Shown here: piece by piece, positions 56,850 through 57,860 of the stretch
How positions within the stretch are numbered: position 1 is the first letter of the stretch
Layout: each line of letters begins with the position of its first letter
Assembly (NCBI GenBank): GCA_024137785.1
Contig: JAHRHZ010000047.1
Location: 10,831,735 to 10,895,734, forward strand
Source of the DNA: Ginglymostoma cirratum
Taxonomy: Eukaryota
Length of the DNA: 64,000 bases
Direction: 5' to 3'
Notes under the pieces: model-generated
Databases searched by the model: none
What the model was told of the DNA's origin: nothing
The model's input: only the letters and a program-made list of their open reading frames with translations
Program-made: the position numbers and the translations under genes

Positions 56850-57053
56850 TTTGGGATCAGGGAAGGTTCGGGGCTCGGTTTTGTTCTTGGGTGCACGTGG
56901 ATGTGGGGTTCCTAAGTGCAAATTTCCCCTGTCAAAGTTGGTGAAAGGCAGACAGTCCACCGGAGTCAGCTGCTGGCTGGTCGAGTTGCAAAGCCCTGAC
57001 GCAGCATCGACATTGTTCAAACACTCAATACCATTGTCGGCCTCCGACAAGGT
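56850..57053 (-). other. CHD2: CHD2 exon 2 leader portion (5'UTR or N-terminal extension)
   Basis: Strong acceptor (long T tract, ...TGTCTTTCTGTAG|ACC) with the exon starting at 57053. The 204 nt are stop-free and in frame with the canonical ATG. Confidence 0.65.
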
Positions 57054-57301
57054 CTACAGAAAGACAATTTTTTTTAAAAAAAAGAAAAAATGTGGGAAAA
57101 TTAAATCGCAAAATAAAAAGGCAAGGCCAAAAACAAAGTTGCAACACAGCTTTGTTTTCATTCTCTTAAAAAAAAGCCACACAACACCAGCACAATTTTA
57201 ATTACGTCATCTCAGACTATCCTAATTTTACAATAAATACATTACCTATTTAAAAAGGTTTGCTTCACAAAAAAATAGATTAATAAAGACTGTAAACATA
57301 C

Positions 57302-57860
57302 CTGTTCCATATATCTCGAGGTTCGAGTTCCAGTCACTGCTCCGTCGACTAAACTTCGCTAAATCGAAAGCTGCTTTCGCTGCTCTTAAAAACCCTAAGA
57401 ATTAGTCTTAAAAACTGCGATTTTTCATCCTGTTTCTTCTTTTGATCGGTGTTTCTCGCGTGTTAGGGAGATGGAGAAAAACAAACACACACACAAAAAA
57501 GTCGTTCAAAAATGGAGGTGCGCCATGTCTGCAAAGCTCAAAAACAACGACATCTGGGATCGGTCCGCTTGCCGGAAAAAAAGAATTTTTTTTTCTCTCT
57601 CTACAAACACACACACACACACACACACACACAGAGCAAAAAAAAAAATGAGGGTAAAATAAAAAGCGACCGGGGTTTCTCCGCAGCCCTGCTTGAAGGG
57701 GCACCTCTGCTGGGAGTTTGCACTGAATCGAAGCGCAGACTGGCTTGAGCAACGCGGTGAAGTTGGGGAAAAGTTGCATTAGGTGTACTGGAAGTGCAGT
57801 GAATCTCGCCCAGCCACCGCCGCCATAGAGCTTCTTCTCAGCTCTGAGGCTCCCTTCCCT
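57302..57860 (-). other. CHD2: CHD2 exon 1 (5' leader; TSS approximate)
   Basis: CpG-rich region ending in a strong donor CAG|GTATGT (intron starts 57301). Minus-strand segments CTCAGAGCTGAGAAGAAGCTCTATGGCGGC and GTCGTTGTTTTTG..ATGGCGCACCTCCATTTTTG resemble the human CHD2 5'UTR as I recall it (unverified). Confidence 0.75.
57607..57632. repeat. (AC)13 microsatellite in the CHD2 5' leader
   Basis: Direct reading; appears as (UG)13 in the transcript. Confidence 0.95.

Follow-up and report, generated by a model that had tools for sequence, protein, structure and literature searches.

A predicted 71-residue N-terminal extension of CHD2 encoded across the exon 1-exon 2 junction in most sharks and rays

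The window analyzed in this study is a 64,000-nt stretch of the Ginglymostoma cirratum genome, and it contains the 5′ half of the shark gene CHD2 on the minus strand. The gene is identified as a CHD2 orthologue by 13 collinear exon matches to the zebra shark CHD2 protein, all on the minus strand, that cover the CHD2 chromodomain and SNF2 regions. The features discussed here are listed in Table 1. The 5′ end was placed at approximately 57845 because a contig of RNA run X2 stops at this position with a non-genomic tail, which we take to be the template-switch adaptor. A run X2 contig with a depth of 7.85 spans 57816-58188, reaching 340 nt upstream of this main 5′ end, and reflects either upstream starts or read-through. 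At the other end of exon 1, the last exon base is 57302, and the donor GT occupies 57301-57300. Further inside the gene, the segment 27111-27037 (-) matches the internal start of the Carcharodon X4 record (72% over 25 aa) and could be an alternative internal exon.

Table 1. Positions of the CHD2 features in the window.
Feature	Position	Strand	Basis or remark
CHD2 exon 1, 544 nt	57302..57845	-	spliced reads end at 57302; run X2 contig stops at 57845
Five upstream AUGs in exon 1	57408..57826	-	predicted from sequence; each stops before 57310
Exon-1-terminal AUG and first three codons, M-E-Q	57302..57310	-	sequence; MEQ start in 30 RefSeq-type records
Intron 1, 248 nt, GT..AG, 27% GC	57054..57301	-	
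Exon 2 in-frame leader, 204 nt, codons 4-71 of the extension	56850..57053	-	
AG before 56928, candidate cryptic acceptor, 79 nt before the old start	56929..56930	-	no use seen
AG before 56911, candidate cryptic acceptor, 62 nt before the old start	56912..56913	-	no use seen
Old (pan-vertebrate) start, ATG ATG	56844..56849	-	
Exon 2 conserved coding part, 62 nt, donor at 56787	56788..56849	-	
Intron-2 exon spliced to exon 2, likely an alternative last exon	47815..48072	-	3′ end estimated
CHD2 exon 3, in frame with exon 2	32155..32380	-	

The five upstream AUGs of exon 1 open reading frames of different lengths. The AUG at 57826, which has a TISU-like context and lies 19 nt from the 5′ end, opens 15 codons, the AUG at 57779 opens 123 codons, those at 57553 and 57526 open 15 and 6 codons, and the AUG at 57428 opens 6 codons; the last of these uORFs ends approximately 100 nt before the AUG at 57310. 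The 123-codon uORF (57779-57410, -) crosses a (TG)15 repeat in exon 1, and a change in the length of this repeat would alter its frame. The AUG at 57310 itself lies 535 nt into the mRNA and has a moderate context, with T at -3 and G at +4.

A sequence-only reading of this locus had described an ATG at 57310-57308 that is followed by GAA CAG and the donor at 57301, with an acceptor at 57053, and all of these elements are present in the sequence. It had also held that splicing to 57053 joins this ATG to a 71-aa extension, and indeed the 204 nt between this acceptor and the main ATG at 56849 are in frame and contain no stop. The spliced mRNA has the defining property of an N-terminal extension, namely an upstream, in-frame AUG without an intervening stop. 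The other two frames of the leader (56850..57053) contain three stops each, and three out-of-frame AUGs occur within its 204 nt, at 57034 (strong context, -3 A and +4 G), 57013 and 57007. Neither these three nor the five AUGs farther upstream in exon 1 were part of the sequence-only reading. Among 20,000 dinucleotide shuffles, 1664 (8.3%) were also stop-free in that frame, or approximately 2.8% with the length condition. The open frame by itself is modest evidence, and its conservation across genera is stronger evidence. Searched for as a repeat, the leader had a single match in its own genome, a count that does not by itself prove rarity.

The RNA runs X2, X5, X23 and X24 were compared with positions 56400-58300, where run X24 had 0 reads. 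Run X23, of which approximately 24% was sampled, is the sole raw-read run with coverage and placed 71 reads on this interval, and a joint was counted if it was carried by at least three reads or by a contig. The joint from 57302 to 57053 was carried by 16 reads with 14 start places in run X23 and by contigs of runs X2 and X5, and three further loose read ends in run X23 are compatible with it. The donor at 57301 and the acceptor at 57053 are therefore in use, which the sequence-only reading had named as one test of its proposal. Within intron 1, the depth was 0.8-2.0 compared with approximately 17 in the neighbouring exon bin, a level that may represent low-level retention or pre-mRNA; with intron 1 retained, the AUG at 57310 would give a 22-codon uORF. 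Contigs of runs X2 and X5 continue from exon 2 into intron 2 (56787-56400) at depths of 22.8 and 11.4, likely from pre-mRNA or DNA, and the contigs extending into intron 2 show one A>G difference at 56615. A low-depth contig has a poly(A) run joined at 56879, an A-rich spot inside exon 2, and probably results from internal priming.

The extension with its MEQ start is also present in automated RefSeq CHD2 models of elasmobranchs, namely in 30 of the 38 records among the matches listed (15 of the 36 and 15 of the 38 members of two large clusters). Isoform X1 of the zebra shark (XP_048418921.1) and of the manta (XP_072134198.1) are examples, and the listings of the literature search contained no paper discussing these automated records. 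Likewise, these listings gave no description of the extension, of a CHD2 acceptor switch or of an intron-2 terminal exon, and the available parts of PMC6841665, PMC11465304, PMC6889285 and 10.1101/2022.01.04.474998 contained nothing relevant.

Among the matches listed, the extension occurs in 11 of 14 genera of both sharks and batoids, including Heptranchias, Carcharodon, Mustelus, three carpet-shark genera, Mobula, Hypanus, Narcine, Amblyraja and Leucoraja, with lengths of 66, 71, 72 and 73 aa. Sharks and batoids separated roughly 270-300 million years ago. Unbroken orthologous leaders were a further test set by the sequence-only reading, and in these 11 of 14 genera, among the matches listed, the leaders contain neither a stop nor a frameshift. 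In RefSeq models the choice of the first in-frame AUG is automatic, and such models do not independently prove translation. Two of the 71 residues differ between the extension in the window and that of the zebra shark record. The eight elasmobranch records without MEQ comprise three with internal starts, one partial record, Heterodontus X2, two Scyliorhinus records and Rhincodon X3. In Heterodontus X2 and the two Scyliorhinus species the annotated start is the old Met, and Rhincodon X3 has a different first exon or 5′ end. By comparison, an old-Met start occurs in none of the 34 records from the 11 extension-bearing genera among the matches listed. Of the two old Met codons, batoids and Mustelus have lost the first; the second is retained by all 30 extension-bearing records.

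Outside the elasmobranchs, the extension is missing in all 10 RefSeq-type chimaera records and in 112 bony-vertebrate hits, gar and bowfin included. Other predicted N-terminal additions were found in 11 of these 112 hits, none with an M-E/D-Q start, and they were rejected as homologues. In a comparison of 166 N-termini, no non-elasmobranch sequence matched the extension at E<=1, and the three skates among them did match. Small proteins (48-154 aa) that match the extension were sought, and none was found.

In human CHD2, exon 1 has 501 nt and exon 2 has 133 nt according to one supplementary row of PMC12096787, so the shark exon 2, at 266 nt, is 133 nt longer. Subtraction of the 62-nt coding part leaves a human exon-2 leader of 71 nt, consistent with the 572-nt UTR given in the accessible part of 10.1101/2025.05.28.656657. 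The same source, as far as it was available, describes the uORFs of the canonical CHD2 leader as all shorter than 40 nt and translated in Ribo-seq, and it describes the joining of a CHASERR donor to CHD2 exon 2 as a known splice control in mouse, human and zebrafish. From these partial sources, the mammalian CHD2 5′ UTR resembles that of the shark in its two-exon leader, similar exon-1 length, several uORFs and exon-2 splicing as a control point. It differs in that no uORF extends the protein and in that the leader has 71 nt instead of 204 nt. The CHASERR-CHD2 fusion, as described there, alters the donor (a CHASERR exon) and not the acceptor. In the available part of 10.64898/2026.01.19.700316, NMD-coupled alternative splicing of human CHD2 may provide a further parallel, with unproductive splicing that lowers CHD2 output. 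The shark AUG also resembles the upstream AUGs of the NTE class as partially accessible in Wieder et al. (2024; PMC11057154), being in frame and stop-free in a gene that is sensitive to dosage and whose leader is long and rich in uORFs. It differs from those AUGs in its place at the end of the preceding exon, where it opens the last three codons before the donor, in yielding an extension that is fixed within a single vertebrate subclass, and in probably serving as the main start. The supplements of PMC11057154 have no CHD2 row.

Identity to the zebra shark within the extension is 0.65 in Mobula, 0.54 in skates and 0.39 in Narcine, compared with 0.87-0.88 in exon 3 and 0.91-0.95 in the core. 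On an assumed tree, parsimony gives 95 changes over the 68 sites of codons 4-71, or 1.40 per site versus 0.32 in exon 3, and on these sequence comparisons no part of CHD2 changes faster than the extension. Within it, identity is higher over residues 4-25 (0.82-0.86; Narcine 0.50) than over residues 26-71. Codons 4-71 contain no stops where about four are expected (P of about 0.014-0.025), and all four indels in the extension (+2, +1, +1 and -7 codons) keep the frame (P at most 0.012). These P values are inflated in significance because protein records show extensions only for species with an open frame, and the conservation of the frame in 11 of 14 genera among the matches listed is subject to the same annotation ascertainment. 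The amino acid changes are not more conservative by BLOSUM than random missense changes (P=0.17), and this test is weak given that the exon-3 control yields P=0.20. An AlphaFold model from an 11-row alignment has a pTM of 0.14 and contains no helix or strand, and the extension is probably unstructured or disordered. It has no protein family match in Pfam or Atlas; two Pfam hits were below the cut-off and were rejected. The best reading of these sequence comparisons is that the open frame of the extension, more than its sequence, is under selection.

These patterns must be weighed against the alternative that the leader is a nucleotide-conserved 5′ UTR, in which the AUG at 57310 is rarely used, translation starts at the old Met and the frame stays open only to avoid another uORF. 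The rapid amino acid change between sharks and batoids (0.39-0.65 against the exon-3 values above), the lack of a conservative bias in the weak BLOSUM test, the moderate context of the AUG and the invariance of the second old Met are all in accord with such a UTR, as are the three genera annotated without the extension and the report, in the accessible part of PMC11057154, that dosage-sensitive genes have long and conserved UTRs. However, the leader tolerates three out-of-frame AUGs, one of them in a strong context, as is usual within coding sequence, and selection against stops and frameshifts implies that translation starts at 57310 often enough to matter, in which case the long form is made. 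We consider this alternative unlikely.

The sequence-only reading had gone further and proposed a splice-controlled switch, in which a regulated choice among the acceptors 57053, 56928 and 56911 determines whether the AUG begins a long isoform or a repressing uORF. The frames are as it had computed: the 56928 acceptor would yield a 26-codon uORF with its stop at 56859, and the 56911 acceptor would yield a 24-codon uORF whose TGA (56848-56846) overlaps the main ATG. Both AGs exist, on either side of the position of the human acceptor with its 71-nt leader, and the pyrimidine tract of 56928 is fair (12/17), but that of 56911 is poor (7/17), with another AG 15 nt upstream. Moreover, 11 AG dinucleotides lie between 57053 and 56873, and every one yields some frame outcome; therefore, the three-way outcome is a chance expectation and not evidence of a switch. 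A switch requires at least two acceptors for the same donor, and in the three covered runs, which are of limited depth, 57053 is the sole acceptor joined to the exon-1 donor. No joint from 57302 to 56928 or 56911 is among the joints listed for these runs, and all 16 of the exon-1 junction reads listed for run X23 lead to 57053. The depth per bin in run X23 (approximately 22, 21 and then 17) does not increase downstream of 56928 and 56911, and the run X2 contigs 56879-57055 and 56788-56908, which flank these sites, have equal depths of 117.0 and 117.1, in an assembly that retained a side branch with a depth of 2.1. Absence is not proven by these counts, since contigs drop rare variants and up to two reads per site could go uncounted in run X23; the 95% upper bound on alternative acceptor use in that run is 27-31% with two uncounted reads at each site and 15-17% with none. 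Rare or tissue-specific acceptor use could go unseen in the few tissues sampled and the one raw-read run, but the short isoform expected from a switch has no counterpart among the 34 listed records of the 11 extension-bearing genera. In addition, because the shark exon 2 exceeds the human exon by 133 nt, the difference in frame looks like a change between lineages and not a switch within the cell. Thus, the long isoform proposed by the sequence-only reading stands at the RNA level and is conserved, and the 3′ splice-site switch, for which no second acceptor joint is listed, we regard as highly improbable.

Control of CHD2 output might instead be exerted elsewhere, by retention of intron 1, by fusion of Chaserr to exon 2 with exon 1 bypassed, or by early termination in intron 2. 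Reads in intron 1 reach about 5-12% of the flanking depth, although they may be pre-mRNA, and the fusion is reported for mouse, human and zebrafish in the accessible part of 10.1101/2025.05.28.656657, but no Chaserr fusion read was seen in the covered runs, and the upstream cluster of Chaserr motifs does not reach significance (P=0.12). As for intron 2, seven run X23 reads leave the exon-2 donor, and their consensus matches 48072; the agreement of this consensus (0.77) implies that four to five of the seven enter the 48072 exon and not exon 3, a share that rests on seven reads of one run. This exon is spliced to an upstream exon, has a stop two codons in (giving 93 aa from 57310 and 22 aa from 56849), contains AATAAA at 47836 and has no strong donor, as is characteristic of an alternative last exon. 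Although the data are thin, splice-linked control of dose is more plausibly placed at this exon than at 56928 or 56911. We consider control elsewhere somewhat unlikely, and it is compatible with the best explanation given below, not exclusive of it.

Several other sites in intron 2 and upstream of the gene were recorded. Approximately 60 nt upstream of the 48072 acceptor, in the segment 48150-48130 (-), a strong GTAAG donor comes immediately after a pyrimidine tract and CAG; this arrangement may represent a recursive-type site of zero length or mark where a further small exon ends. The segment 41020-40949 (-) matches the alternative N-terminus of Rhincodon X3 (83% over 24 aa), a possible alternative first exon within intron 2, and an RRATGG-rich bin is located at 40.5-41.0 kb. 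Upstream of the start by 1.3-2.1 kb, eight ARATGR motifs at 59968-59184 (-) mark a candidate last exon of shark Chaserr (P=0.12), and a patch rich in GC and CpG that contains a TISU-like AUG approximately 20 kb upstream (L003, about 4000-5000) is a candidate shark Chaserr promoter.

With a splice junction read in RNA, an open frame and conservation of that frame across 11 genera, we consider it probable that the AUG at 57310, via the sole acceptor at 57053, provides CHD2 with a constitutive, lineage-specific head of 71 residues, whose translation we infer. Ribosomes would likely start at this AUG and produce a CHD2 with a probably disordered head that is common to most sharks and rays. Leaky scanning past the five short-to-medium uORFs, or re-initiation after them, would bring ribosomes to 57310, and those that passed this AUG would meet the three out-of-frame AUGs before 56849 and 56846. 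Because ribosomes that skip 57310 would be partly lost before 56849, the long form probably predominates over a minor short form; some of the short form may still be made, since the second old Met is kept in every extension-bearing record. Selection probably acts mainly on the open frame, with a weaker constraint on the first 25 residues, as a stop or a frameshift would make the AUG at 57310 a repressing uORF in a dosage-sensitive gene.

The short N-termini of chimaeras and bony vertebrates make a gain in the shark-ray stem the parsimonious inference, and the extension likely arose there when the exon-2 acceptor shifted about 133 nt upstream. The human acceptor position falls between 56928 and 56911, which lie 79 and 62 nt upstream of the start, and one of these two may therefore be left over from the older acceptor. 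In a broader scenario, which we put forward only tentatively, the AUG at the end of exon 1, which opens a tiny repressing uORF in bony vertebrates, became the main start codon of the shark-ray ancestor through this 133-nt shift, which created a de novo disordered head of 70 residues from former intron or UTR whose frame is kept for dosage while its sequence drifts, with the dose of CHD2 set by early termination of the majority of transcripts in intron 2.

Both a deficit and an excess of CHD2 are harmful, and the CHD2 leader is a target for therapy. The extension is already in databases and the within-cell switch was not seen, and we therefore rate the value of this case as moderate to low. If our explanation is true, a leader AUG turned start codon in sharks and rays would illustrate, as a clean natural case, the conversion of a uORF into coding sequence, and the extension would be a natural example of selection on the frame and not on the peptide.
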